NCBI GenBank assembly: GCA_012441205.1
Contig: GCA_012441205.1_4705.1
DNA: 64,000 nt
From: a phage
Strand: one strand, 5' to 3'
In this document: piece by piece, positions 5,342 through 57,553 of the stretch
Position numbering within the stretch: the stretch's first letter is position 1
How the letters are laid out: every line of letters begins with the position of its first letter
Translations under genes and position numbers: made by a program
The notes under the pieces: model-generated
Told to the model about the DNA's origin: nothing
Seen by the model: only the letters and a program-made list of their open reading frames with translations
Database searches by the model: none

Positions 5342-5971
5342 ATGAGCGAATATGGTGTTGCCCCCGTAGATGATGAACCGCAAGAAGCACCTGATAAATT
5401 CGAGGTCCGTCTTGACGAAACCCGTAATATCCGCCAACGATTTATTCAACGCCTTGAAATGCTGTTAGATAGCGAATTCAAAGATTTCGAGCTTAATCCT
5501 GGCGCTGATAACAAAGCCATCGTCGACGTCGAAAACGTCGACCGAATAGGTAAGCTGTTGTTGAAATCGTTGGGCGATAACGACAAAGTCGACTTAACGT
5601 TGAAACGTATCAGTGCCGACCAGGCCATGAATGACAGCGCACTGAAAACAGCACAAGCCCTAACCGAAACCATGCTGCGCCGCTTAGGTCAGATGGATCA
5701 ACATCCTCTCGCAGCAGGGGCTGTTTATGAAGGCGAAGTCGTGAAGCCAGTCACGCCTGAAGAACGTGATCGTCGACTTGGTTTTGCGTCATTGGAAGAG
5801 TTCGATAGCAAGGAGTTCTCACCAGGCGTTCTCATCCAGGGACGTGTCGAAGAAACCAGCGATGCTTTCTATGCTAGAATGGCTCAACTGACGGCGTCGG
5901 TTCGTGAGGAGGTATCTCAGAAGATGGCTGCAGATCATCAGTCTTCGGAGGCGTCACACGAGGAGGAATAA
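5342..5971 (+). CDS. hypothetical acidic protein
   Basis: ATG preceded by GGAGA at 8 nt; 209 aa, Glu/Asp-rich. Confidence 0.6.
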   Translation: MSEYGVAPVDDEPQEAPDKFEVRLDETRNIRQRFIQRLEMLLDSEFKDFELNPGADNKAIVDVENVDRIGKLLLKSLGDNDKVDLTLKRISADQAMNDSALKTAQALTETMLRRLGQMDQHPLAAGAVYEGEVVKPVTPEERDRRLGFASLEEFDSKEFSPGVLIQGRVEETSDAFYARMAQLTASVREEVSQKMAADHQSSEASHEEE

Positions 5972-6662
5972 AATAACTGAACCATTTTATTCCAAAGAAC
6001 CGCATGAACATCACAGGCGCGTTAGAAAGTTCGATTGCTTCGTAAAGTTTGTCATAAGCCAGATCGGAATCAGGGATGGTTTCACTGATTCGTCTGGCTA
6101 CAACCAATACGTTACAAATCGGATTGTCTTCTAACAGCATCTGATTGGGGAGGTGCCAGCGTTTGAAATCGTAAAAGAACATCGCATTATACGTCTTACG
6201 GATTTCTGACGGATGCAGTGTGGCCGGATGACGGTAAATAATCTCAACGCTATCTTGCGCGCCGAGGTATTGCTGGATGCCTTCTTTTAACGCAATTGCA
6301 GCATCTCCCACAAATTCAAACGGGTACGTATTCACATGAACCGAAAAATCCGGTGCGGCAATCCCTGTCAAGCGGTCTTTCATGTAGTCCGCAACCACGT
6401 AACATAATCGCCACATCAACTCCGTCGGAATACATTTATCAAGAATGGTTTCATCGATATTTGCCAACGCACCCTTAAACTCTTCGTAAGTGTAAGTAAC
6501 ACCCGCCTGCTTTTCCGGCTCCAGGTTATAGGGTCGGTAATGCCATTTCTTCCCCCACTTTCTGATAGCCTCAGGATCCAACGTTGTTGCTACCGCCATT
6601 TCGATATCAAGCAGCGCCTCGAGTTCTACGTACACCGTCACTAACGCCGCATTTCCAGTCAT
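5874..6662 (-). CDS. hypothetical protein (3' end overlaps convergent gene 5342..5971)
   Basis: 262-aa ORF; Pro-rich C-terminal ~30 aa lie in the 98-bp overlap with the + gene. Confidence 0.5.
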   Translation of the reverse strand: MTGNAALVTVYVELEALLDIEMAVATTLDPEAIRKWGKKWHYRPYNLEPEKQAGVTYTYEEFKGALANIDETILDKCIPTELMWRLCYVVADYMKDRLTGIAAPDFSVHVNTYPFEFVGDAAIALKEGIQQYLGAQDSVEIIYRHPATLHPSEIRKTYNAMFFYDFKRWHLPNQMLLEDNPICNVLVVARRISETIPDSDLAYDKLYEAIELSNAPVMFMRFFGIKWFSYFIPPRVTPPKTDDLQPSSEIPPHEPTPSVEPF

Positions 6663-7366
6663 CGTTGCTCTCCAGCTTCACCGGTTAACATCTGCATATC
6701 GGGAGACGTTTTAATTTTCTTCTCGTACTCTTTTGTTTGTTTGAATACCAACTCACCGATTTCTTCCAATTCTTCAACGGTGACGGTATGCAAATAAAGC
6801 AACGGAATAATCCAGGTATTCGCACGAAGCATATCCCGAATATCATCAATGGTGGGTAATTCCGTAAAGAACTGTTCGTCTACCGCGAATAAATCCCGGG
6901 CGATACCATCCACCAGTTTATGATTGCTTTCATGGATCCATGCAAAACTTCCAGCAAGATGATCGATAAGCATATCGATGTCATCGACAGTTGAGAACAC
7001 TGTACGCCGAACGTGCGTTGTGAGGTCCATCGTAAAACCCATTAACGAAGGGGTTTCCTCAGAACGGAGTTCACGCCAAAGACGGATCATGTTTTCAGGG
7101 ATAAACAAATCATGGATGAACGTCACACTGAATTTCGTAACCCAGTCACGAATTGTTGCCCCTTTGGAATATTGTTGCGGTGGGGAATACAAATACACCC
7201 AGCGTTTCGTGTACGCGATAACTTCCTTTCGCATCGCCGCATCTAAAACAAGCACGTAACGATCGGAAGCAAGCTCTTCTAATAAAAGCTCGAACGCAGT
7301 ATCACTCTCTGGGGAGAACGATCGTTTTATTTCTGCGATACGTCGTGATAACCGACCACGTAACAT
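6659..7366 (-). CDS. hypothetical protein
   Basis: 235-aa ORF, 4-bp overlap with downstream gene (operon-like packing). Confidence 0.55.
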   Translation of the reverse strand: MLRGRLSRRIAEIKRSFSPESDTAFELLLEELASDRYVLVLDAAMRKEVIAYTKRWVYLYSPPQQYSKGATIRDWVTKFSVTFIHDLFIPENMIRLWRELRSEETPSLMGFTMDLTTHVRRTVFSTVDDIDMLIDHLAGSFAWIHESNHKLVDGIARDLFAVDEQFFTELPTIDDIRDMLRANTWIIPLLYLHTVTVEELEEIGELVFKQTKEYEKKIKTSPDMQMLTGEAGEQR

Positions 7367-7368
7367 AA

Positions 7369-8043
7369 TTAGCCCTCATCAAGGTTATTCTGGAGATGCA
7401 TCGCGGTGAGGATAACGCCAACCGCCGAAACCGATTTTGCCTTGCTGTCTTCAGGGAGCTGCTCCAAGCTTACGGTACCTGTTTCTAACAGCATGCGGTT
7501 CATCGCGTTGAACTTCTTATCGTCACCACCACGAGCCTGCATCAGCTCTCGGTTCACGTTCGGCATCGACCGTCCTAACGTCGCTTGCATTTCCGGCTGG
7601 CTCCAAGTGGAACCTTTACTATCACCCGTCGGCTGATTGGTGAGCTGGTCCTTGGTGTTGTTGTTTTTCGGAATCGAAATTTTAGCACTCAACGTTTCGG
7701 CTTGTCGGCGGTTTGGAATCAGGTACAATCTGGTTGGGCGGTCACGAAGCACCAATTGCCCTGTTTTCTGGTCGGTGAGATAAATGCGTTGGAAGAAAGG
7801 GAAACCGTATTTCTTACCGACTTCCAACGCACGTTTTATCGTCACCTCGTTTTTGTTCATGTTGGGTACCCAGATGGGTAGAATCTCTTTCTTATCCCGA
7901 CATAAACGCATATAGGCATCAAACGTCTCATCATCGATTTCAGCAAAACGTTTTTTGTAAATAGCGTAAGTCGGGCTCGATTCACCCACCAGGTCTTTGA
8001 TATACCCAAGAATGAATTTTTCTGCTGCAGCGCGGTTGGACAT
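7369..8043 (-). CDS. hypothetical protein
   Basis: 224-aa ORF in tight minus-strand array. Confidence 0.55.
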   Translation of the reverse strand: MSNRAAAEKFILGYIKDLVGESSPTYAIYKKRFAEIDDETFDAYMRLCRDKKEILPIWVPNMNKNEVTIKRALEVGKKYGFPFFQRIYLTDQKTGQLVLRDRPTRLYLIPNRRQAETLSAKISIPKNNNTKDQLTNQPTGDSKGSTWSQPEMQATLGRSMPNVNRELMQARGGDDKKFNAMNRMLLETGTVSLEQLPEDSKAKSVSAVGVILTAMHLQNNLDEG

Positions 8044-49831: not shown

Positions 49832-52741
49832 ATGAACGATATAAATAAAGGGCGCGTCGCCCTCGAACGTCAAATGAGCAATAATGACGTTGCGAAGGCA
49901 CTCATGAACAAATTTGTCGCTCCTGCTCCGCAGTCACGTCTTTATAATACACGTGATGCGGAAGGAGCGAACGGTCGTTTCGGGTTAGTTGTTCCCGACC
50001 AAATGACGATGAACACGGTTACGCGTGCTACCGCGACAAACATCGAGGATAATAAAAACATCCTCGAGCTGTTCCCTGAACTTAAACGCGTGATGCAGAT
50101 CTATGTTGCCGCGTTGACGAACCCTAACGATCTTAAGACGGTCGAGATGTTTATCGACAGCGAAGATTTCCCCGGCAGAGTCGCAGAAATCGTTCAGCCG
50201 ATGATCGATACCATCGACACGCATTTTAAGAATATCTATAAAATAAAGACGCTTATCCCTCGTATCATCGAAGACGTCTTCTTTATCAAGGGCAGTTATA
50301 ACTTCGTTGTTCTGCCGGAAAGCACGCTCGACCGCGCCATTAATGGTAACGGTCAACTGAAACTTGAAGAATACGGATTTAAAGACAACCATTTTGCAAG
50401 TTGGGGGCTTCTAGGTAACGACAGTCGCAAACGCCACGAAAATCAATTACCTGCGACGGTTTCGATGGAAGATTATTTCTCGGGTGTTAATGAAACCATA
50501 CCGTACGATCCTGTTGTTCGCATAGACAGCATCAAGTTTACCAATACCCTGCTTCGCGATAAGGACGGTAAATTCATTGAAGCGAAGATCGATATTCCGG
50601 ATATGGTTACGGTTGTCGATAACCCAGACATCCTCCGCATGCCTATTCTGCATCAACGTCGAGCAGCGACAGCAGTGCAGCGTGCGTTACGCGCAAACAC
50701 GTTAGGAGGTAGTGGTTTGGTAACGCTGTCAGGCGATCCGACCCTAACCGCTAACCGACGTGAGCTGTCGCAAGAACAGGTTAACGAGATCTGGAATAAG
50801 CTCAACATCCAGCGCCACACCAAGGTATCGCCCGTTTACGCGCTGGCAACCCCAGATACGCTTGATCGTCAAAGCGTTGGCCATCCTGGCGTGATGCATG
50901 TACCACCTGAGGCATTAGAACCCGTACATGCGCCCGGTGATCCTGAGAACCATATCGGGTATTTGGTTCAGTTGGATGAGTTTGGTTATCCAGTACGTTT
51001 GGTTGAAGATGCGGCGTATTACAAGCAGTTGGAAGGTCGGTTGTCGAAGATCACCGCAGATATCGCAGGTACGTCAAGCAACGGCATGGCGAGCGAGATG
51101 ATTGGTGCAGCCAAGAACATGATCCAAGGTACGTCATGTAATCAGGTAGACATGTCGGCCTTCGTATCATCGTACGAATCGCTGATGCAACGTTACATTG
51201 TCGAACGTATCGTTAACGGTTATCTTGGCAGTGCGGTGGAGATCGGTGCGACATCATCGTTTTATCTGTCGATGCTTGCTCGTAGCCTCGCTCACAAGCA
51301 GACCCGTGTTTTGTTTATTCCTCGAGAGATGGTGACTTACATCGCCTATGAATACAACAAATACGGTATCGGTCGTTCGCTGCTTGAAAGTACGAAGATG
51401 ATCTCATCGCAACGAGCCATGCTCATGGTTCAAGAACTGATGGCGAAAATCAAAAGTTCGTTGAACTATACGACGCTAAGCGTAATGCTTGAAGACACCG
51501 ACAGAAACCCGGTCGATACCGTCGAACAAGCACTGCATAGTTTCGCTCGTGTCTACCAGTCTGGTTTCCCGTTGGGTGAAACTAACCCGATGGATATCAT
51601 CAACGCGTACGAACGAAGCTCGATTAGATTGAAGGTTGAGGGGAATAACCCACGCTTCCCGAAATTGAATACAGACGTCAGTGTTGAGCAGCGTAACTAT
51701 CAGTCTCCTGATAATGAGCTGATGGATCGTTACCGTCGTGACCATTTCATGGGCTTGGGTGTGTCTCCGGAGATTATCGATACTTCCTACCAATCTGAAT
51801 TCGCAGCTTCTGTGATTACAGCTAACGCGATGCAAGAGAAACAGTTCACGGTTTGTCGTGAGGTGATCACGAATGGGTTATCGGACCACATCAAGAAATA
51901 TACGGCATACAGTCCCGTGTTGTTGACGTCGTTACGAAACACGGTTCGTGCGAACATGTCTAAGCTTTCCCAGGCACAATTGAAGCAGCTTTTTGGTAGC
52001 GATTTCGAAAACGGTGTTATCCGTAACGTTAACGCCTATCAGGAGATTGACGACCAATCAGCAACAATGGATCTGGATTACACTAAACCAGAAGTCCAGG
52101 AAGTTATTGCCGATGCTTATGTGTCCATGTTCTTAAACAGCCTGCGTGTGCGTTTACCGGATAGCAATGCCCGTCGCCTTGAAGATCAGGTACGTGAATA
52201 TAATCAGTACAAGGAAGCGATTACTGCGCAACTTGATGATTATTTAACGCCTGATTACGTCATGGGTCTGGGTGGGGTTGATGAAACAACGCTGCAGATG
52301 ATCCGCGCATGCATTATTGGTACCGCGATGCGTACGTGGGCAAAAGAGAACAACTTCAATCAGGAGCTGGCTGATCTCTTCAGTCTTGACGATAAGAAGA
52401 ATGCCGTGCAAGATTGGAAACGTATGTCCATGGAACATATTGAAGTCATGGGTAAATGCATGGGTGATTTTGCATTGTATATTCAGAATCTGACGAAGAA
52501 GATTGAAGAGAAGATGGGAGCTCAAGCACAGGACGGTAGCGTTTCATCTGATGGTTCGTGGTCATCCGATTCAAGTAGCGATACCGGTTCTTCTGATGAC
52601 TTCGGTGGCGGTGACGATTTCGGAGATACCGATTTCGATACCGAAACGATGGAGGAAACCTCAACAGAAGAAACAACCACATCTGAGGAAACGACGACCG
52701 ACACAACGTCAGAAGACGACACTTCAGGTGACATTGTCTAA
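49832..52741 (+). CDS. large hypothetical protein (969 aa) with extremely acidic Ser/Asp/Thr/Glu-rich C-terminal tail
   Basis: AAGGAG 9 nt upstream of ATG; last ~70 aa are DGSVSSDGSWSSDSSSDTGSSDDFGGGDDFGDTDFDTETMEETSTEETTTSEETTTDTTSEDDTSGDIV. Confidence 0.6.
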   Translation: MNDINKGRVALERQMSNNDVAKALMNKFVAPAPQSRLYNTRDAEGANGRFGLVVPDQMTMNTVTRATATNIEDNKNILELFPELKRVMQIYVAALTNPNDLKTVEMFIDSEDFPGRVAEIVQPMIDTIDTHFKNIYKIKTLIPRIIEDVFFIKGSYNFVVLPESTLDRAINGNGQLKLEEYGFKDNHFASWGLLGNDSRKRHENQLPATVSMEDYFSGVNETIPYDPVVRIDSIKFTNTLLRDKDGKFIEAKIDIPDMVTVVDNPDILRMPILHQRRAATAVQRALRANTLGGSGLVTLSGDPTLTANRRELSQEQVNEIWNKLNIQRHTKVSPVYALATPDTLDRQSVGHPGVMHVPPEALEPVHAPGDPENHIGYLVQLDEFGYPVRLVEDAAYYKQLEGRLSKITADIAGTSSNGMASEMIGAAKNMIQGTSCNQVDMSAFVSSYESLMQRYIVERIVNGYLGSAVEIGATSSFYLSMLARSLAHKQTRVLFIPREMVTYIAYEYNKYGIGRSLLESTKMISSQRAMLMVQELMAKIKSSLNYTTLSVMLEDTDRNPVDTVEQALHSFARVYQSGFPLGETNPMDIINAYERSSIRLKVEGNNPRFPKLNTDVSVEQRNYQSPDNELMDRYRRDHFMGLGVSPEIIDTSYQSEFAASVITANAMQEKQFTVCREVITNGLSDHIKKYTAYSPVLLTSLRNTVRANMSKLSQAQLKQLFGSDFENGVIRNVNAYQEIDDQSATMDLDYTKPEVQEVIADAYVSMFLNSLRVRLPDSNARRLEDQVREYNQYKEAITAQLDDYLTPDYVMGLGGVDETTLQMIRACIIGTAMRTWAKENNFNQELADLFSLDDKKNAVQDWKRMSMEHIEVMGKCMGDFALYIQNLTKKIEEKMGAQAQDGSVSSDGSWSSDSSSDTGSSDDFGGGDDFGDTDFDTETMEETSTEETTTSEETTTDTTSEDDTSGDIV

Positions 52742-52826: not shown

Positions 52827-53099
52827 TTACGAGGTTAACCACGATTCAATTGTGGTGAGTTTGCTTCTCAGTACGCGCCAACTAGGGTGTGGTGGGATCA
52901 CAGCGCCTTTGTCGATTACGGTTAACTGAACCTGGTACTTCTGCTGCATACGCGCTACCGTGTCGCTTATCGAGAGGAAAAGCTGGTAACGTTCATATGC
53001 CGTCAGTTCACTGTCCTGTTGAACTGCGTTGGCCGCTAACGTAATTTCGCGTAAGTCCTTTGCATCCACAGAGACGGTAATGAGTTTATATTGACTCAT
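52827..53099 (-). CDS. hypothetical small protein
   Basis: 90-aa ORF at the 3' end of the 59.2-52.8 kb minus-strand block. Confidence 0.45.
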   Translation of the reverse strand: MSQYKLITVSVDAKDLREITLAANAVQQDSELTAYERYQLFLSISDTVARMQQKYQVQLTVIDKGAVIPPHPSWRVLRSKLTTIESWLTS

Positions 53100-53160: not shown

Positions 53161-55719
53161 TTACTGCTCTTCACGTTCCAGCAGATACTCGGAAGCGGTA
53201 ATACCGTTTACCGTACGTACTGCTTTCAGACGAGTATCATCGCTCAGAATTACAGTAACAGATTGCAGACCTTTTACTTTGGTTTCGAAGGTCTTGAACA
53301 CCTGATCCAGCATACGAGCAATGCTTGGGTTGGTTGCAGCCGATGCGTGGGTGTAACCGCTTTGGTTCAGCTTCAGAATCTTGGCGTTGGTCGGTACGCG
53401 AACAACAACATGCGGACGCATCGCGAACACGCTATGATTAAACCAGTAAGCATCGTTGCTATCTTCGTCGGTAACGATGTCTGGATTAACACGCATATCC
53501 TCGACAGCCGCATCCGCCAAACGACGTTCGATTTCATCGGCGTCCAGAGAGCCATCTTTCTCCAGTTCTGCACGATACTCACTCATGGCAACCAGATGAC
53601 GTTCACGATTCGCTGCGGATTTTTCGTGAGCGGCTTTCAGGTAGTCATGCATGTTGTACAGTTCTGCCATGGAAAGACGAATGTTCCACTGACCTTCGCC
53701 GTCACGATTGCAGTAGAGACACTTCAGCATGTTGACCCAGGTATAGTAGCAATTGGAGAATTCATCTTCAATGAACTTCTGGTCCATTTTAAGATCGTGA
53801 ATCAGCCAACCGGACAGTTCTCCGATATCATCAACGAAGCTAGAGATGGTGGTTTCAGAGAAGTTCTTCGGTACGATACGTTTGATCAGCTTATTGACGT
53901 CTTTGGTCATGCTATCGTTCAGGAAATGCCAGATACGCAGAGGAATAACATCTCGATACTGTTGCATGATCTGACGATAAGCTTTGATATCGTCGCTACG
54001 ACCTTTATCAATAGACAACGCATCCAGGAATTCATGGATTGCATCCAGCTCTTTGTCGGTATAGGTTCCCAGATAGGAATTGACGGTGGCAAGGAATGCT
54101 AATGCGTCGTTTTGGTTGACGTCGGTGTTGGTCTGCTGAATGATTGCCACTGAAGCTTTGGTTTCAGCATCCTCAACGCTTGACGCTGCGATTGCGTCGG
54201 TGACGGTAAACAGTTTCATTTCGCGCTGCTCACCGACAACGATTGGCTCACGTTGAACCGGTTTGTTAAGACTAACACGAACAACTTCTGCTTGCGCGAT
54301 ACGATCCAGTTTTGCCATTTCCTGCTCTGCCATACGACGAGCGGTTGGATCTGATTCAAGTTCGATGTATTCCACTTCTTCCTCCGTGAGGGATGTAATG
54401 TCAACAATGGTTTCATGAAGAATTCCGTTTTCGTCGATACGTGCTCGACGAGCGAAGTGCCTGAAGTCATACAACGTCGGCCAACGACTATTAGGTGCAA
54501 AGTCTTTGGCTTTCAGACGCATCTGCATAAATTCTTCATGTTGAACAACACGACCGTAACGCTTAGCATCTTCGGTCGCATCAATTGGATTAACGGTCTT
54601 TGTTACCGTAGCAGAACGAGCCGTACGAACGGGTTCCGGTTTCACCTGCGCAGGTTCAGGTTGAACGGGTTTCTGCTGCCCAGCCTTAACATGCCATTCT
54701 GGCTCTTCGTACTGTTCAGCAAACTGTTCAGCCGCTGCAAAGATATCGTTGATACCACCAATATCTCCTTCAGGATTTGTCGAGTAAATCCGTGGTTGTG
54801 GTGCCTCGTAACGCGGCGCTGTAGTAGCAGGCACCTCATCAACGATAGGATCGTCATCACCAACATCATACAAACGGTTGAACGCACAATCCTTCGAATC
54901 AATGTACGATGGCGCTTGTGGTTGGACAACCGTCGGCCGAGGTTGTGCACCGTATCCTGGTGTTGTTGGAGCCATGCCGCGCATAACTGCCGGACTAGGT
55001 TGGTATTGCGGTTGCGGATAGGTTCCACCATACATAGCGTACGCAGGCTGTTGTGGTTGACCATACCCGTTGCTAACCATCGCGCTTGCTTGCGGCCCAC
55101 GATAAGTCATCCCCATCTGCATCACCTGCTGCTTCAAACCACGTGACTTCTGAGCGATTTGCGCTAGGCTTCCGCTTTTATTCAGCTGCGTGTACTTATT
55201 CGCGGCTTCCGGGTTAATGCGTGATAATTCGATCGCGCGATAATATTCCGGGTACTGATTCGGTTCAAAGAGCCACGTTACAAGGTGATACAGCGCAACT
55301 GTGCTCACAGCAGCAGAGACGATCTGGTCGTCGGACGCGTTCTGCGGCATCGGGTTGATGTAAGAGAATACGTTCCAACAACAGTCTTCAACAAGCGATT
55401 CCATCATCATATCGTTATTGGTATAACGTGCGACGAACTCGGTTTGTATTTTGTCTTGCTGAGCGAAGTCTTTCAGGACATTAAAGATGGCTTGACGGAT
55501 TTTGACGATCGTCGCTTCTTGGGTGATGAAGTTATAGTTCTGCTGATATGAGGGTTGTTGGTATTGTGGTGGTTGATAGGCGTTATTCGGGTATGCGCCG
55601 TACGGAGATTGCTGATACTGTTGCTGACGAACCTGTTCAGCCGCATAATTAACCGTGCTCGTATAAGGGTTTTCGCTATAACCCATTTGTTGATACATGT
55701 TGTTACTGCCATTATACAT
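53161..55719 (-). CDS. 852-aa protein with prion-like Q/Y/P/G-rich low-complexity regions
   Basis: N-terminal ~60 aa (YQQMGY ... QQQYQQSPYGAYPNNAYQPPQYQQPSYQQNYN) and a second stretch (GYGQPQQPAYAMYGGTYPQPQYQPSP...); AAGGA upstream of ATG. Confidence 0.6.
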   Translation of the reverse strand: MYNGSNNMYQQMGYSENPYTSTVNYAAEQVRQQQYQQSPYGAYPNNAYQPPQYQQPSYQQNYNFITQEATIVKIRQAIFNVLKDFAQQDKIQTEFVARYTNNDMMMESLVEDCCWNVFSYINPMPQNASDDQIVSAAVSTVALYHLVTWLFEPNQYPEYYRAIELSRINPEAANKYTQLNKSGSLAQIAQKSRGLKQQVMQMGMTYRGPQASAMVSNGYGQPQQPAYAMYGGTYPQPQYQPSPAVMRGMAPTTPGYGAQPRPTVVQPQAPSYIDSKDCAFNRLYDVGDDDPIVDEVPATTAPRYEAPQPRIYSTNPEGDIGGINDIFAAAEQFAEQYEEPEWHVKAGQQKPVQPEPAQVKPEPVRTARSATVTKTVNPIDATEDAKRYGRVVQHEEFMQMRLKAKDFAPNSRWPTLYDFRHFARRARIDENGILHETIVDITSLTEEEVEYIELESDPTARRMAEQEMAKLDRIAQAEVVRVSLNKPVQREPIVVGEQREMKLFTVTDAIAASSVEDAETKASVAIIQQTNTDVNQNDALAFLATVNSYLGTYTDKELDAIHEFLDALSIDKGRSDDIKAYRQIMQQYRDVIPLRIWHFLNDSMTKDVNKLIKRIVPKNFSETTISSFVDDIGELSGWLIHDLKMDQKFIEDEFSNCYYTWVNMLKCLYCNRDGEGQWNIRLSMAELYNMHDYLKAAHEKSAANRERHLVAMSEYRAELEKDGSLDADEIERRLADAAVEDMRVNPDIVTDEDSNDAYWFNHSVFAMRPHVVVRVPTNAKILKLNQSGYTHASAATNPSIARMLDQVFKTFETKVKGLQSVTVILSDDTRLKAVRTVNGITASEYLLEREEQ

Positions 55720-55753
55720 TTCTTACGATCCTTTTTATTTATTCGGTTATGTG

Positions 55754-57553
55754 TCAATCGATTATGTCGTGATCGTTAATTTCTACAATTTCTTCATCGA
55801 ATCGACCGACGTCTTTCTTCAAGCCTGCATTGGTTGCTGCAACGTCATTTGCAATTTGTGGGGTAATGATTAACCGACCGCGCTCATCGATAGGTGCGTA
55901 CATACTGAACTTCTGACGTCCGGTTGGTTCGGAGTGTGGAAGATTCAGATAGCTTGCACAGAACGGGATGGAACCACTAACCAAACGACTCTCGTCAGCC
56001 AATGCAGCACCGCCTGCGTTTTGGCTCTGGAGAACAACATGCGTGCTCACTTTGAACAGCATGCAATCACCCGGTGACTGAATCGATGTTGCCACTTTCT
56101 CACGTTTATCACGATTGCTCTGGATATTGAGAATCGCTTCCGTTGCAACTTGATTTCGCAACGCCTTCTGTACATCACGATTGGTCATCTCTTTACGGTT
56201 GTTCTGTCGTTTACCACGTTCTGTGGTTTTAAGATGGAACCCCAGTTTAAAGATGCTCTTACGCACATCCTCCATGACATATTCCAACACCATCAATTCC
56301 TTACCGAACATCGTCGTGGTATCAACACGACTCATTTCGATAGTGACATTGTCAATCAGATACGCCATAAATTCGTAGAAGTCGTCGCAAGGAATATTTT
56401 CCTGTTTGAACTTCTTCTGTTGAATTTCATCAACGTAAAGATCGAGACTGTCGATGTGGTGGTTTACATCACGCAACAAACGCGCATCCGCGTTGTTGTT
56501 ATTAAAGATAATCAAACCGAGTAATGTACGCCAATGGTCTGGCGCATTCGCGAACTCTTCAACCGGATAGTCTTCCGGAAAACGATCGTAATAACGGTCG
56601 ATGAGATACAAGAATGCACCGACAAGGCCAAGAACAATACGTTCCGTGCCTCCACGTCTTACTGCAATTTGAATATCAGGATGTTTGTAACGTACAGCGC
56701 TAGCGCTACGGCTTTTACCGCTTTTGCTGATACTAAAACCTTTAGGAATAACCCCCATGGTGCGATAGATTACCCATTGGTCACGCGGAAAATCACGTTC
56801 AGCAAGGTTCCGTCCGGTTACGGCTTCGACACCTGCAAAACGTCGGAAACACTCACCCACCCCGTACTTCGCAAAGAGATAGTGACCCAGTGTGGTTACG
56901 CTGGTGTGGTTGATGTTGTCACCGTTCACTTTACTTTGTTTGGTAAGATGATAGATTTGTGACCAGGGTAATGACAGGTAATGACGATAATCGATACCGG
57001 TCGGTGTATCATTGCTCAGGAACTGATACGGTGTACGTTTAACCGTGATTTTGTCACGCGGAAGCATGATGAACGCCATGTCTTTCGTGTAACTGATTAC
57101 CGGGTCAGCGAGCACTGCACTGAGAATGAAGTTCGCACCACGTAGACGCATTTTACCACCCTGACCTACCGCGGGTAATAGGAGAGGATGTCGGATAATG
57201 CAGTAGTCCTTTCCGGGTTCACGACGGTCACCTGATTCCATCGCTCCGTACCAGCGGAATTCTAGCATCACCATAAACACATCGGATGGCGCAAGGTCGA
57301 AGGTCAGCTTACCGCTATCCTTCCCTTTGGTTTTCTTTCCTCCGCTTAAGTAGTGGAACTGTTCGCGGGCCATACAGCGACGCAGGCCATGATACACCAG
57401 ATCCTTAGGTAAACTATCTTTGCTGTTCCGCCAAAGACGATCAACATAGGACTCAACATCTTGCATCTTATCGACGACGATGTTGCGTGCTATCTTCTCG
57501 TTCATCTTCGGTGCAAGCCCAGCGACAGCTTTGCAGAATCTAGGATCCATCAC
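55754..57553 (-). CDS. 599-aa hypothetical protein in putative early operon (worth testing as nuclear-shell/chimallin-like)
   Basis: Long ORF tightly linked to neighbours; no motif recognised. The chimallin idea is pure inference from size and operon context. Confidence 0.55.
   Translation of the reverse strand: MMDPRFCKAVAGLAPKMNEKIARNIVVDKMQDVESYVDRLWRNSKDSLPKDLVYHGLRRCMAREQFHYLSGGKKTKGKDSGKLTFDLAPSDVFMVMLEFRWYGAMESGDRREPGKDYCIIRHPLLLPAVGQGGKMRLRGANFILSAVLADPVISYTKDMAFIMLPRDKITVKRTPYQFLSNDTPTGIDYRHYLSLPWSQIYHLTKQSKVNGDNINHTSVTTLGHYLFAKYGVGECFRRFAGVEAVTGRNLAERDFPRDQWVIYRTMGVIPKGFSISKSGKSRSASAVRYKHPDIQIAVRRGGTERIVLGLVGAFLYLIDRYYDRFPEDYPVEEFANAPDHWRTLLGLIIFNNNNADARLLRDVNHHIDSLDLYVDEIQQKKFKQENIPCDDFYEFMAYLIDNVTIEMSRVDTTTMFGKELMVLEYVMEDVRKSIFKLGFHLKTTERGKRQNNRKEMTNRDVQKALRNQVATEAILNIQSNRDKREKVATSIQSPGDCMLFKVSTHVVLQSQNAGGAALADESRLVSGSIPFCASYLNLPHSEPTGRQKFSMYAPIDERGRLIITPQIANDVAATNAGLKKDVGRFDEEIVEINDHDIID

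Follow-up and report, generated by a model that had tools for sequence, protein, structure and literature searches.

The locus and its genes

The DNA that we have studied is a stretch of 64,000 nt from a phage, which we call the window. It contains a gene for a protein which is 98.9% identical in amino acids and 97.7% in nucleotides to gp38 of Goslar (QBO63831.1 / YP_009820723.1); we will use this name for it. Its features are collected in Table 1. The gene starts 34 nt past the stop of a gene in the same strand, which codes for a subunit of the non-virion RNA polymerase (nvRNAP). This neighbour, an ORF of 599 aa, matches phrog_2943 (E 1e-119), is 23.8% identical to phiKZ gp123 across 93% of its length and has tblastn matches in 235 jumbo-phage records. 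A scan for sigma-70 promoters and terminators around the gp38 gene gave scores no better than those of shuffled sequences.

Table 1. Features of the gp38 gene and its surroundings (positions in the window)
Feature	Position	Strand	Description
Whole ORF	53161..55719	-	852 aa + stop, ATG start
Shine-Dalgarno-like AAGGA	55729..55733	-	9 nt before the ATG, read from the sequence
nvRNAP subunit gene	55754..57553	-	Upstream, co-oriented; orthologue of phiKZ gp123 and Goslar gp39
LCR1, aa 1-63	55531..55719	-	Gln/Tyr/Asn/Pro-rich, nearly uncharged N-terminal tail; 12 evenly spaced Tyr
N-terminal helical domain, aa 64-205	55105..55530	-	Occupies the position of the JADA N-terminal domain (NTD); 8 helices in AF2, pLDDT 50-70
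LCR2, aa 206-272	54904..55104	-	Pro/Gln/Tyr/Gly/Ala-rich uncharged linker
Segment aa 273-380	54580..54903	-	Pro-rich, net-acidic, probably disordered; one short conserved helix
C-terminal domain (CTD), aa 381-852	53164..54579	-	Homologue of the JADA CTD, which is dimeric

The AF2 models of gp38 are poor (pLDDT 37.5 and 45.1). Their secondary structure has helices at 59-201, coil at 202-323 and mixed helix and strand from 378. By its register with phiKZ gp124, the CTD probably starts at about aa 310. Besides the two low-complexity regions (LCR1 and LCR2) there is a third region of disordered type, the acidic Pro-rich segment aa 273-380, which is missing from the original prediction. It has 28% charged residues, and its position relative to the charge-hydropathy line is that of disordered sequences; in the low-confidence AF2 models it is coil save one short helix, which is conserved (aa 324-335, INDIFAAAEQFAEQYEEPEW). 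A recombination breakpoint of the relative P0003 falls within this segment.

Composition of the low-complexity regions

Two stretches rich in Gln, Tyr, Pro and Gly, of about 60 and 80 aa, had been predicted in this protein and considered atypical. Both are real and the lengths are close: LCR1 has 63 aa, while the length of LCR2 depends on the threshold, 67 aa if strict and 91 aa if loose. They are also exceptional in the window: the best 40-aa segment of gp38 has 78% Q/Y/P/G/N, whereas none of the remaining 59 ORFs with 80 aa or more exceeds 47%. LCR1 is composed of 22% Q, 19% Y, 14% N and 9.5% P, with 4.8% charged residues; LCR2 has 19% P, 15% Q and 12% each of Y, G and A, with 4.5% charged residues (a fraction of charged residues, FCR, of 0.045-0.048 in the LCRs). 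I, L, K, F, W, C, H and D are absent from both. The Tyr residues of LCR1 follow each other with gaps of 7, 5, 5, 6, 10, 5, 3, 5, 5, 5 and 4, an even spacing (coefficient of variation of the gaps, CV, 0.32; p=0.0007). The same test finds no evenness in LCR2 (p=0.19). Tandem Repeats Finder detected no repeats in the gene, so that the bias resides in the protein and not in repetitive DNA. An origin of the LCRs by repeat expansion at the DNA level was rejected for this reason, although short in-frame indels do exist.

We have measured prion-likeness as the Jensen-Shannon divergence (JSD) of composition, with a background of 1,684 windows. For LCR1 the JSD is 0.129 with the Sup35 prion domain, 0.162 with FUS LC and 0.312 with the proteome of the window. 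Both LCRs are found within 0.129-0.228 of Sup35N/FUS LC, and at about 0.31 from the window proteome; none of the 1,684 background windows is as near to Sup35N/FUS LC as they are. A FUS-like or PrD-like composition, uncharged, with polar and aromatic residues and few aliphatic ones, is found in both LCRs. The Q/N content gives a different result. In the Michelitsch-Weissman census a Q/N-rich prion-like domain reportedly has at least 30 Gln+Asn per 80-residue window. The maximum in gp38 is 26, at aa 3-82; among its relatives, 30-33 are counted in P0004, P0007 and Eowyn gp146. [G/S]Y[G/S] motifs are 3 in gp38 and 20 in FUS LC 1-214. The predicted likeness to prion and phase-separating domains is supported in part, by composition but not by Q/N content.

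Assignment to the JADA family

Close relatives of gp38 are few. A tblastn search of 50,697 phage records gave Goslar as the sole match. Four relatives with 80-99% identity came from a word-indexed search among 5.8 billion proteins; just P0005 (34% identity) and a fragment were gained when 1.84 billion representatives were searched exhaustively with HMMER. Further word-indexed searches with family alignments gave 7 matches and 1 match; the one with 7 was probably swamped by low-complexity words. There is no match in PHROGs and nothing above threshold in Pfam, where Cas9_C_2 at aa 731-791 stayed below the cutoff (18.6 bits, cutoff 27) and was dismissed as chance. The Goslar-clade profile, run on the PDB sequences, has no match up to an E of 1. 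Searches of the PDB with each LCR by phmmer were also blank, which is expected because of composition filters. We found no study on Goslar gp38 in a literature search; the "gp38" of a paper on early-infection (EPI) vesicles is phiKZ gp38, an unrelated protein.

Synteny, profile alignment and structure comparison together show that gp38 is a very divergent JADA orthologue of the Goslar lineage, related to phiKZ gp124 and to Pa36 gp316 (PDB 9RP3). In 20 of the 20 chimallivirus loci inspected, an ORF of 618-981 aa comes right after the nvRNAP subunit gene, and the same gene order is found in loci L022-L025. This position directly after the nvRNAP subunit gene is general to the JADA family (PMC12931631). 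When alignments are compared with hhalign, the Goslar clade matches a group of seven orthologues with a probability of 97.9% (E 3.7e-13, 346 columns) and the phiKZ clade alone with 97.2% (E 3.4e-11), in both cases in the CTD, which carries the family motif TIxSFVDDIGELxxWL. Weaker collinear matches (74-87%) are found with the Ea35-70, Eowyn/P0009 and PCH45 clades. phiKZ gp124 matches 9rp3_A, "Gp316/JADA", over its full length with 1666 bits.

A Foldseek comparison of the AF2 model with 350,542 PDB chains gave 9rp3_A (E 6.8e-10) and 9rp3_B (1.6e-09), and the next match has E 0.32: 9RP3 is the sole significant match in the PDB. Its probability is 1.00 over 462 columns, as a match of the local structural alphabet (3Di+AA) and not a global superposition, with a query pLDDT of 45 and TM of 0.17-0.32. 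The top 15 matches in BFVD are jumbo-phage proteins of 620-981 aa, including Eowyn gp146; those with a name come from Aeromonas, Vibrio and Klebsiella jumbo phages. The BFVD alignments run nearly full length, yet with low TM.

The tripartite plan of JADA, with a small NTD, a long disordered linker and a large CTD, is matched by gp38 in composition, charge-hydropathy and AF2 prediction. LCR2 corresponds to the "long disordered or flexible" linker of JADA (PMC12931631) and LCR1 is an N-terminal tail. The NTD of gp38 (aa 55-210) has a probability below 1% in hhalign with the NTDs of five other clades. These domains are barely related among the other clades too: phiKZ and Eowyn/P0009 reach 79%, the rest are below 10%. 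The JADA identity was missed by the original prediction, one of whose stretches (LCR2) is a linker already described in this family (PMC12931631).

JADA is essential in the nucleus-forming jumbo phages (Chimalliviridae) and is sensed by the Avs5 immunity. The family has no Pfam model and is spread over at least three PHROGs of "unknown function" (15010, 11639 and 13213); the link with gp38 was missed by BLAST, PHROGs and Pfam. With this assignment the family includes a protein of the E. coli model chimallivirus, in which CRISPRi-ART genetics and cryo-ET of EPI vesicles are established.

Several properties are known from the Pa36 and phiKZ orthologues. JADA is essential, is expressed early and by 10 min ranks with the most abundant proteins (PMC12931631). 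It triggers the Avs5 defence by direct activation, for which the CTD alone suffices (PMC12931631), so that the LCRs are unnecessary for the Avs5 readout. The CTD is a rigid dimer; the N-terminal part and the linker are invisible in cryo-EM (PMC12931631). Before infection JADA is diffuse, afterwards it forms foci at EPI vesicles (PMC12931631). When phiKZ124 is knocked down, phage transcription is strongly perturbed at 30 min (PMC12571901). That phiKZ gp124 binds complexes of the host DnaX/FtsZ is reported in a secondary citation (PMC11849849), to which we have given no weight.

Conservation and selection

The best 60-aa fraction of Q/N/G/S/Y/P/M has a mean of 0.69 in 25 orthologues and of 0.45 (sd 0.07) in controls; 20 of the 25 lie above the 95th percentile of the controls. 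Uncharged segments rich in Q/P/G/M/Y are kept in 20/25, and an N-terminal tail like LCR1 is present in many orthologues. At the level of composition, the bias recurs across the JADA family. The sequence of the LCRs is unalignable between clades. P0005, the nearest relative outside the clade, has a short N-terminal tail with few Tyr. The linkers of PCH45, Haymo and FBKp24 are of a charged R/G/S/E type, and pVp-JHP1101 is without any such region.

Within the Goslar clade we can compare codons. Between the window and P0004, dN/dS is 0.127 in LCR1, 0.103 in LCR2, 0.137 in the NTD and 0.096 in the CTD, with dS 0.8-1.3. In the whole clade the range is 0.08-0.13 for LCR1 and 0.08-0.15 for LCR2, on par with the folded domains; these LCR estimates are based on 62-75 codons with dS partly saturated. 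Between P0003 and P0004 the 75 codons of LCR1 have no amino acid change at a dS of 0.25. Judged from these substitution patterns, both LCRs are under purifying selection in this clade. Values of 0.08-0.13 at a dS of about 1 or more also support the translation of LCR1 in the stated frame. P0003 and P0004 have in-frame insertions in LCR1, with a total of 12-13 residues, including QQPPYQPQQ. In the LCRs 18 of the 20 Tyr are invariant in the clade and one further changes from Y to F; in LCR2 it is 8/8. The enrichment in invariant Tyr is a trend only (Fisher p=0.08). Poor conservation, which would have spoken against a role for these regions, is not what we observe: their dN/dS of 0.08-0.15 resembles that of folded domains and the bias is found in 20/25 orthologues. 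What is new here is the recurrence of LCRs in the family, their dN/dS of about 0.1 in the Goslar clade, the Tyr spacing of LCR1 and a composition which resembles Sup35N and FUS LC more than it does phage proteins.

These data bear on a simple explanation, that the LCRs are passive spacers: flexible entropic connectors or tails in which any uncharged, non-folding sequence is tolerated, which do not self-associate and in which only the distance between NTD and CTD matters. The sequence turnover between clades, the three lineages with charged linkers, the one without a linker region and the in-frame indels of LCR1 agree with it. Furthermore, JADA has been treated as having a plain disordered linker, its CTD alone activates Avs5 and the purified protein is a well-behaved dimer (PMC12931631). 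Nevertheless LCR1 is terminal and connects nothing, so it has no spacing role; a dN/dS of about 0.1 at a dS of about 1 means that in the clade the residues themselves are conserved, beyond length; the even Tyr spacing is unexpected in a neutral spacer, and the retention of Tyr points in the same direction, as a trend. The uncharged Q/P/G/M/Y bias also recurs in 20/25 lineages despite the sequence turnover. We consider this explanation rather unlikely.

gp38 in the Goslar virion preparation

In LC-MS/MS of a Goslar virion preparation, gp38 (gp038) is represented by 26 peptides with 28% coverage, and 17-39 copies per virion are estimated. It has about 25 copies per virion-equivalent and its nvRNAP neighbour gp039 about 0.14, a difference of more than 100 times. 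Such numbers would suggest that gp38 is packaged and injected, about 25 copies per capsid, with LCRs which aid its passage through the tail or act on arrival. However, 78-171 copies of chimallin, ChmC and PhuZ were present in the same preparation, and its authors state that nucleus fragments and filaments were captured too. gp38 is also absent from the cryo-EM model; phiKZ gp124 and 201phi2-1 gp204 are without virion annotation, unlike their neighbours, and Churi gp199 is among the listed non-structural early proteins. Finally, Pa36 JADA that was synthesised inside the cell is recruited out of its cytoplasm (PMC12931631). Packaging appears to us very improbable.

Possible role of the low-complexity regions

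We favour the reading that gp38 is the JADA of the Goslar lineage and that its LCRs are the disordered tail and inter-domain linker of the family, acting as weakly adhesive tethers; we give it a probability of about 60%. The dimer of the CTD would bring together four uncharged segments studded with Tyr in each particle, about 40 Tyr in total. Such segments would be flexible and weakly adhesive, so that the NTDs might sweep a large volume, and weak Tyr/Gln contacts with like segments or with partners would add avidity. This avidity may help the abundant gp38 to gather in foci at the EPI vesicle, the site from which the early transcripts of the phage come, and the foci could support the switch to nvRNAP-dependent transcription. 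A contribution of the LCRs to the concentration of gp38 at the vesicle is suggested by their purifying selection and by a composition conserved in most lineages. The "disordered linker" becomes in this way a concrete hypothesis; if the LCRs were plain spacers, the gain would be limited to an improved annotation.

A stronger version would make the LCRs the driving force: owing to these prion-like scaffolds gp38 would undergo liquid-liquid phase separation, or assemble in an amyloid-like manner, and form a membrane-less body during infection. Their composition near Sup35N and FUS LC, the Tyr content of 19% and 12%, regular in LCR1, and an FCR below 0.05 are in line with it. So is the pelleting of gp038 with large assemblies, far more than nvRNAP, in the Goslar virion preparation. 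On the other side, FUS LC has 163-214 aa and the LCRs are much shorter with 63 and 67 aa, gp38 has 26 Q/N per 80 aa instead of at least 30, and the high proline of LCR2 (19%) disfavours amyloid. The dimeric core would provide multivalency, and the orthologue does form foci at EPI vesicles (PMC12931631), but a binding partner associated with the vesicle could explain the foci equally well. Pa36 JADA purifies as a soluble dimer, gives a diffuse signal in uninfected cells and is monodisperse enough for mass photometry and cryo-EM at 2.1 A (PMC12931631). This behaviour of the orthologue argues against autonomous aggregation, so that self-association, if any, should be weak or dependent on a nucleating partner. 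We see the scaffold as improbable, and we do not think that the LCRs form self-templating amyloids or prions.

A more speculative idea, to which we give little credence, can be added. JADA could be the scaffold of a condensate or mesh based on Tyr/Gln contacts, which the phage builds on the surface of the EPI vesicle. Through its dimeric CTD it would attach to nucleic acid or to the vesicle, and the conserved uncharged Q/Y/P/G segments, RGG-like in some lineages, would form a phase like those of FUS or FG-nucleoporins. It would concentrate early mRNAs, ribosomes and new nvRNAP/ChmA, and would license the hand-over from vesicle to nucleus. If it were true, the essentiality of JADA, its foci, the transcription phenotype and its targeting by Avs5 would follow from an obligatory and exposed phase-forming hub present in many copies.

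Comparison with known systems

With the described members of the JADA family gp38 shares a gene downstream of the nvRNAP subunit gene and co-oriented with it, an architecture of NTD, long disordered uncharged linker and large CTD, and relatives which are confined to chimalliviruses. It differs from the phiKZ type by an identity of only about 15-18%, which makes the link invisible to BLAST, phmmer, PHROGs and Pfam. It is also 131 aa longer and has an extra Tyr/Gln-rich N-terminal tail; its linker has 12% Tyr, whereas that of phiKZ is just 5% aromatic in its best 60-aa window. About 90 aa (aa 677-768), with two long predicted helices, are inserted in the CTD of gp38.

The E. coli SSB linker (aa 113-168; sequence of PDB 1EQQ/4MZ9) is likewise an uncharged tether rich in G/Q/P, by which an interaction module is joined to a folded, oligomeric core, and has the hexapeptide GQPQQP in common with LCR2. 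It is reported to promote phase separation. Its JSD is 0.23 to LCR2 and 0.16-0.20 to the LCRs of phiKZ, P0009 and LAh10. However, it is non-homologous, dominated by Gly and nearly without Tyr, and it ends in a short acidic tip, whereas LCR2 connects two folded domains.

Sup35 N (sequence of PDB 9XBN) is the nearest compositional match of LCR1 (JSD 0.129); both are Q/N/Y-rich, with a pentapeptide-like periodicity of YQQ type. LCR1 has 37% Q+N against 45% and is half as long, and a JADA orthologue is soluble. The FUS/FET LC (sequence of PDB 5W3N) resembles the gp38 LCRs in being uncharged, rich in Gln/Tyr/Pro/Gly and poor in aliphatic and charged residues. The CV of Tyr spacing is also similar, 0.32 in LCR1 and 0.36 in FUS 1-163, with a JSD of 0.16-0.18. 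The resemblance is only in composition, with no homology: the LCRs have 63 and 67 aa instead of 163-214, 13-18% G+S instead of 42-49%, more proline, and 3 [G/S]Y[G/S] motifs instead of 18-20.

ChmC (Goslar gp176 / PhiPA3 gp61) is a nucleus-associated RNA-binding protein which is reported to form condensates with RNA (bioRxiv 10.1101/2023.09.22.559000). It belongs to a chimallivirus too, so that a condensate-type behaviour has been reported for infection by this family, and in the virion preparation of Goslar it came down together with large assemblies, like gp38. It is unrelated and small, with 28.6 kDa according to Table S4. Its fold is Whirly-like, and its condensation is driven by RNA instead of a Q/Y-rich LCR.

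Genomic setting and identification of gp38

The window derives from a phage closely related to Escherichia phage Goslar, one of the nucleus-forming jumbo phages (chimalliviruses). Its 852-aa protein, here called gp38 after its Goslar counterpart, shows 97.7% DNA identity and 98.9% protein identity with Goslar_00038, which is annotated as a hypothetical protein. The gene has a Shine-Dalgarno sequence AAGGA 9 nt upstream and its start codon lies 34 nt past the stop codon of the preceding gene. The neighbouring polymerase subunit is the orthologue of gp123, a subunit of the non-virion RNA polymerase (nvRNAP) of phiKZ. On the other side the gp37 ORF is present in every contig of the Goslar clade. 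Its length is 91 aa in L022, L024 and L025 and 110 aa in the distant L023, and its sole family match, to Vps51, is sub-threshold. Next to it lies the gene of gp36, which in Goslar is the portal protein by cryo-EM, with a crown domain in residues 778-923 (bioRxiv 10.64898/2026.04.21.720040). Beyond the crown its C-terminus has an acidic Ser/Thr/Asp/Glu tail (…DGSVSSDGSWSSDSSSDTGSSDDFGGGDDFGDTDFDTETMEETSTEETTT…), a second low-complexity region within the window, quite unlike those of gp38.

No match to gp38 was found in PHROGs, a Pfam match was sub-threshold and judged to be due to chance, and tblastn against 50,697 phages matched Goslar alone. Two very large protein searches gave only four relatives with 80-99% identity, together with P0005, a protein of 774 aa with 34% identity; the gene order on its contig is that of the window. 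The lead to the JADA family came from synteny: the gene after gp123 in phiKZ is gp124 (721 aa), its equivalent in Klebsiella phage Eowyn is gp146 (790 aa), and 18 of 18 further chimallivirus loci have an ORF of 618-981 aa after the polymerase gene (split in two frames in the PhiPA3 record). The whole length of phiKZ gp124 matches 'Gp316/JADA', PDB chain 9rp3_A, with 1666 bits.

Profile alignment of the Goslar clade with seven positional orthologues gave a probability of 97.9% (E 3.7e-13, 346 columns, gp38 407-840); with the phiKZ clade alone it gave 97.2% (E 3.4e-11). A common motif reads TIxSFVDDIGELxxWL in gp38 and TIDDFCEDIGDLIAYL in phiKZ. Homology of the N-terminal domain (NTD) to other JADA clades was not detectable in this way. 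The AF2 models of gp38 are poor because the alignment contains only nine sequences; the second one has low confidence, with a mean pLDDT of 45. Among 350,542 PDB chains the only significant matches of this second model were 9rp3_A (E 6.8e-10) and 9rp3_B (E 1.6e-09), the next best having E 0.32. In BFVD it matched 15 jumbo-phage proteins of 620-981 aa, including Eowyn gp146; those with a name are from Aeromonas, Vibrio and Klebsiella jumbo phages. The TM-scores are low (0.17-0.32), so these matches represent local structural-alphabet similarity, not global superposition. All this identifies gp38, with high confidence, as a divergent orthologue of JADA.

Pfam contains no model for the JADA family, and in PHROGs it is split over at least three groups of 'unknown function': 15010 (phiKZ-like), 11639 (Ea35-70-like) and 13213 (Aphrodite-like). 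The Goslar clade matches none of the three. With this fragmentation, and with no Pfam model, annotation pipelines cannot see one family.

Features of the window and of related loci. dN/dS is for the window against the relative P0004, with dS 0.8-1.3; the regions are short and dS is partly saturated.
Feature	Position	Strand	dN/dS	Properties
Portal protein gp36	49832..52741	+		969 aa; phrog_3004
gp36 acidic tail	52544-52738	+		~65 aa
gp37 ORF	52827-53099	-		90 aa; directly downstream of the gp38 (JADA) gene
gp38 gene	53161..55719	-		ATG start; 852 aa
RNA polymerase subunit				599 aa; immediately upstream of the gp38 gene, co-oriented; phrog_2943, E 1e-119
LCR1, first low-complexity region	gp38 aa 1-63		0.127	Q 22%, Y 19%, N 14%, P 9.5%; charged 4.8%
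NTD	gp38 aa 64-205		0.137	
LCR2, second low-complexity region	gp38 aa 206-272		0.103	P 19%, Q 15%, Y 12%, G 12%, A 12%; charged 4.5%
GQPQQP	gp38 aa 220-225, about 55045-55062			within LCR2
Third segment	gp38 aa 273-380		0.135	Pro-rich, net acidic
CTD, C-terminal domain	gp38 aa 381-852		0.096	
P0003	L024 1001-3592			gp38 relative, mosaic
PhiPA3 JADA orthologue	L004 (NC_028999) 5649-7740	+		two frames
PhiPA3 frame with CTD	6190-7740	+		
Haymo linker	L011 protein, aa 114-173			RGG-like
PCH45 linker	L006 protein, aa 148-207			RGG-like
FBKp24 linker	L010 protein, aa 179-238			RGG-like

Low-complexity regions in gp38 and in the JADA family

The two Q/Y/P/G-rich stretches of the original prediction are real, with lengths of 63 and 67 aa. 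In the best 40-residue window gp38 has 78% Q/Y/P/G/N, against a maximum of 47% among the 59 other ORFs. Compared with the other proteins of the window, LCR1 is enriched 5.3-fold in Q and 4.8-fold in Y, LCR2 5.0-fold in P and 3.6-fold in Q. Both are devoid of I, L, K, F, W, C, H and D. Repetitive DNA does not account for this bias. The third segment is probably also disordered.

Residue 409 of gp38 aligns with residue 369 of phiKZ gp124. From this register the linker published for JADA corresponds to LCR2 and part of the acidic segment; LCR1 forms a tail at the N-terminus. The bias is characteristic of the JADA family: in the 25 proteins encoded at the JADA position the highest Q/N/G/S/Y/P/M fraction over 60 residues has a mean of 0.69, against 0.45 (sd 0.07) in about 124 neighbouring control ORFs, whose maximum is 0.58 once stray JADA copies are taken out. 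Twenty of the 25 lie above the control 95th percentile. The regions are found at the N-terminus, at relative position 0.19-0.28, or at both. Their flavour varies: Q/Y/P in Goslar, Eowyn and P0009, Q/M/P in the Ea35-70 group and G/Q/P/M in phiKZ. The exceptions are PCH45, Haymo and FBKp24, whose linkers are rich in Arg/Gly/Ser/Glu (RGG-like; in Haymo GRGYGRDDRRGGGRESSFGR…GGSRGYGGGRQEGY) and not in uncharged Q/P/G, and pVp-JHP1101, which has no such linker. The first three, Serratia and Klebsiella phages, have a different class of low complexity where the linker lies. In PhiPA3 the annotated gp140 (261 aa) stops within the low-complexity linker; the split is due to a frameshift or else to a sequencing error in the DNA coding for this linker, and the gp141 annotated on the opposite strand is probably spurious.

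Selection and tyrosine pattern

Both low-complexity regions are under purifying selection. All 75 codons of LCR1 encode the same amino acids in P0003 and P0004, despite a dS of 0.25. In the clade 18 of the 20 tyrosines are invariant and one more changes to F; this exceeds the invariance of the other residues by no more than a trend (p=0.08). In LCR1 they are evenly spaced (gaps 7,5,5,6,10,5,3,5,5,5,4; CV 0.32, p=0.0007 against shuffles), in LCR2 they are not (p=0.19 against shuffles).

P0003 is a mosaic: its LCR1, NTD and LCR2 are almost identical to those of P0004 (L022), its CTD to that of the window protein (dS 0.085, against 0.85 with P0004). This pattern places a recombination breakpoint in the disordered aa 273-380.

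A passive spacer is a less likely alternative for these regions. In its favour, their sequence is not conserved across clades, four lineages have charged or absent linkers, and activation of the Avs5 defence protein needs the CTD alone; against it stand dN/dS values around 0.1, the tyrosine pattern and the location of LCR1, a tail which connects nothing.

Possible role

Pa36 gp316 was named Jumbo phage Avs5 Defense Activator: it binds and activates a Sir2-type Avs5, its CTD, which has a novel fold and forms a rigid dimer, is sufficient for activation, and its N-terminal part is not visible in cryo-EM (Muralidharan et al., Mol Cell 2026, PMC12931631). Before infection it is diffuse; afterwards it gathers in foci at the early-infection (EPI) vesicles, and the authors propose that it may act in early transcription (PMC12931631). 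In an independent study, antisense silencing of phiKZ124 left phage transcription strongly perturbed at 30 min (PMC12571901). PMC12931631 does not deal with low complexity, composition or condensates, and the name Goslar gp38 does not occur in the text available.

In gp38 a CTD dimer would display four uncharged, flexible segments studded with tyrosines. These might act as weakly adhesive tethers, which would extend the reach of the N-terminal domains and add avidity. The avidity would help such an abundant protein to concentrate at the EPI vesicle and to support the expression of early genes and the transition to nvRNAP. JADA membership, the domain plan, the recurring bias and purifying selection are shown by the data; for the adhesive role of the segments we consider the chances about even. 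As a whole, a JADA protein with adhesive tethers is the best explanation, with a probability of roughly 0.6.

A true condensate or prion scaffold would agree with the composition, the multivalency and the foci. It is unlikely, as Pa36 JADA has a diffuse distribution until infection and is a soluble dimer when purified; a tyrosine/glutamine-based phase on the EPI vesicle with JADA as its scaffold is equally improbable. Packaging of gp38 in the virion has to be weighed too: LC-MS/MS of Goslar virions gave 26 gp038 peptides, an estimated 17-39 (about 25) copies per virion-equivalent, with about 0.8 for gp037 and just ~0.14 for the adjacent nvRNAP subunit gp039 (Table S4, bioRxiv 10.64898/2026.04.21.720040). 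However, the same preparation contained chimallin, ChmC and PhuZ, its authors state that nucleus fragments and filaments were captured (bioRxiv 10.64898/2026.04.21.720040), and JADA orthologues are not annotated as virion proteins, which makes packaging very improbable. On these counts gp38 accompanies virions or other large assemblies in far greater amounts than nuclear enzymes, which suggests that it travels with such assemblies.

The JADA family and its 'disordered linker' are already published, so gp38 is a highly divergent addition to a known family. New are its assignment, the family-wide conservation of composition in the disordered regions, the purifying selection on them and the regular tyrosine spacing: modest points, yet testable.

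Comparison with known low-complexity regions

Disorder and prion-likeness were judged by composition, charge-hydropathy and explicit criteria, with Sup35N, FUS LC and the E. coli SSB linker as references (sequences confirmed against PDB entries). The Jensen-Shannon divergence of LCR1 is 0.129 from Sup35N, 0.162 from FUS LC, 0.283 from the SSB linker and 0.312 from the window proteome; for LCR2 the values are 0.228, 0.184, 0.228 and 0.308. None of 1,684 background windows comes as near to Sup35N or FUS LC. The prion-like character originally proposed thus holds for composition. Other features speak against a strict label: the Q+N count of gp38 is 26 per 80 aa (the classical census asks for at least 30), [G/S]Y[G/S] motifs number only 3, compared with 20 in FUS 1-214, and LCR2 has 19% proline. 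The nearest bacterial analogue of LCR2 is the G/Q/P-rich disordered linker of the host SSB (WGQPQQPQGG; PDB 1EQQ): it contains the identical hexapeptide GQPQQP, probably a coincidence of composition.
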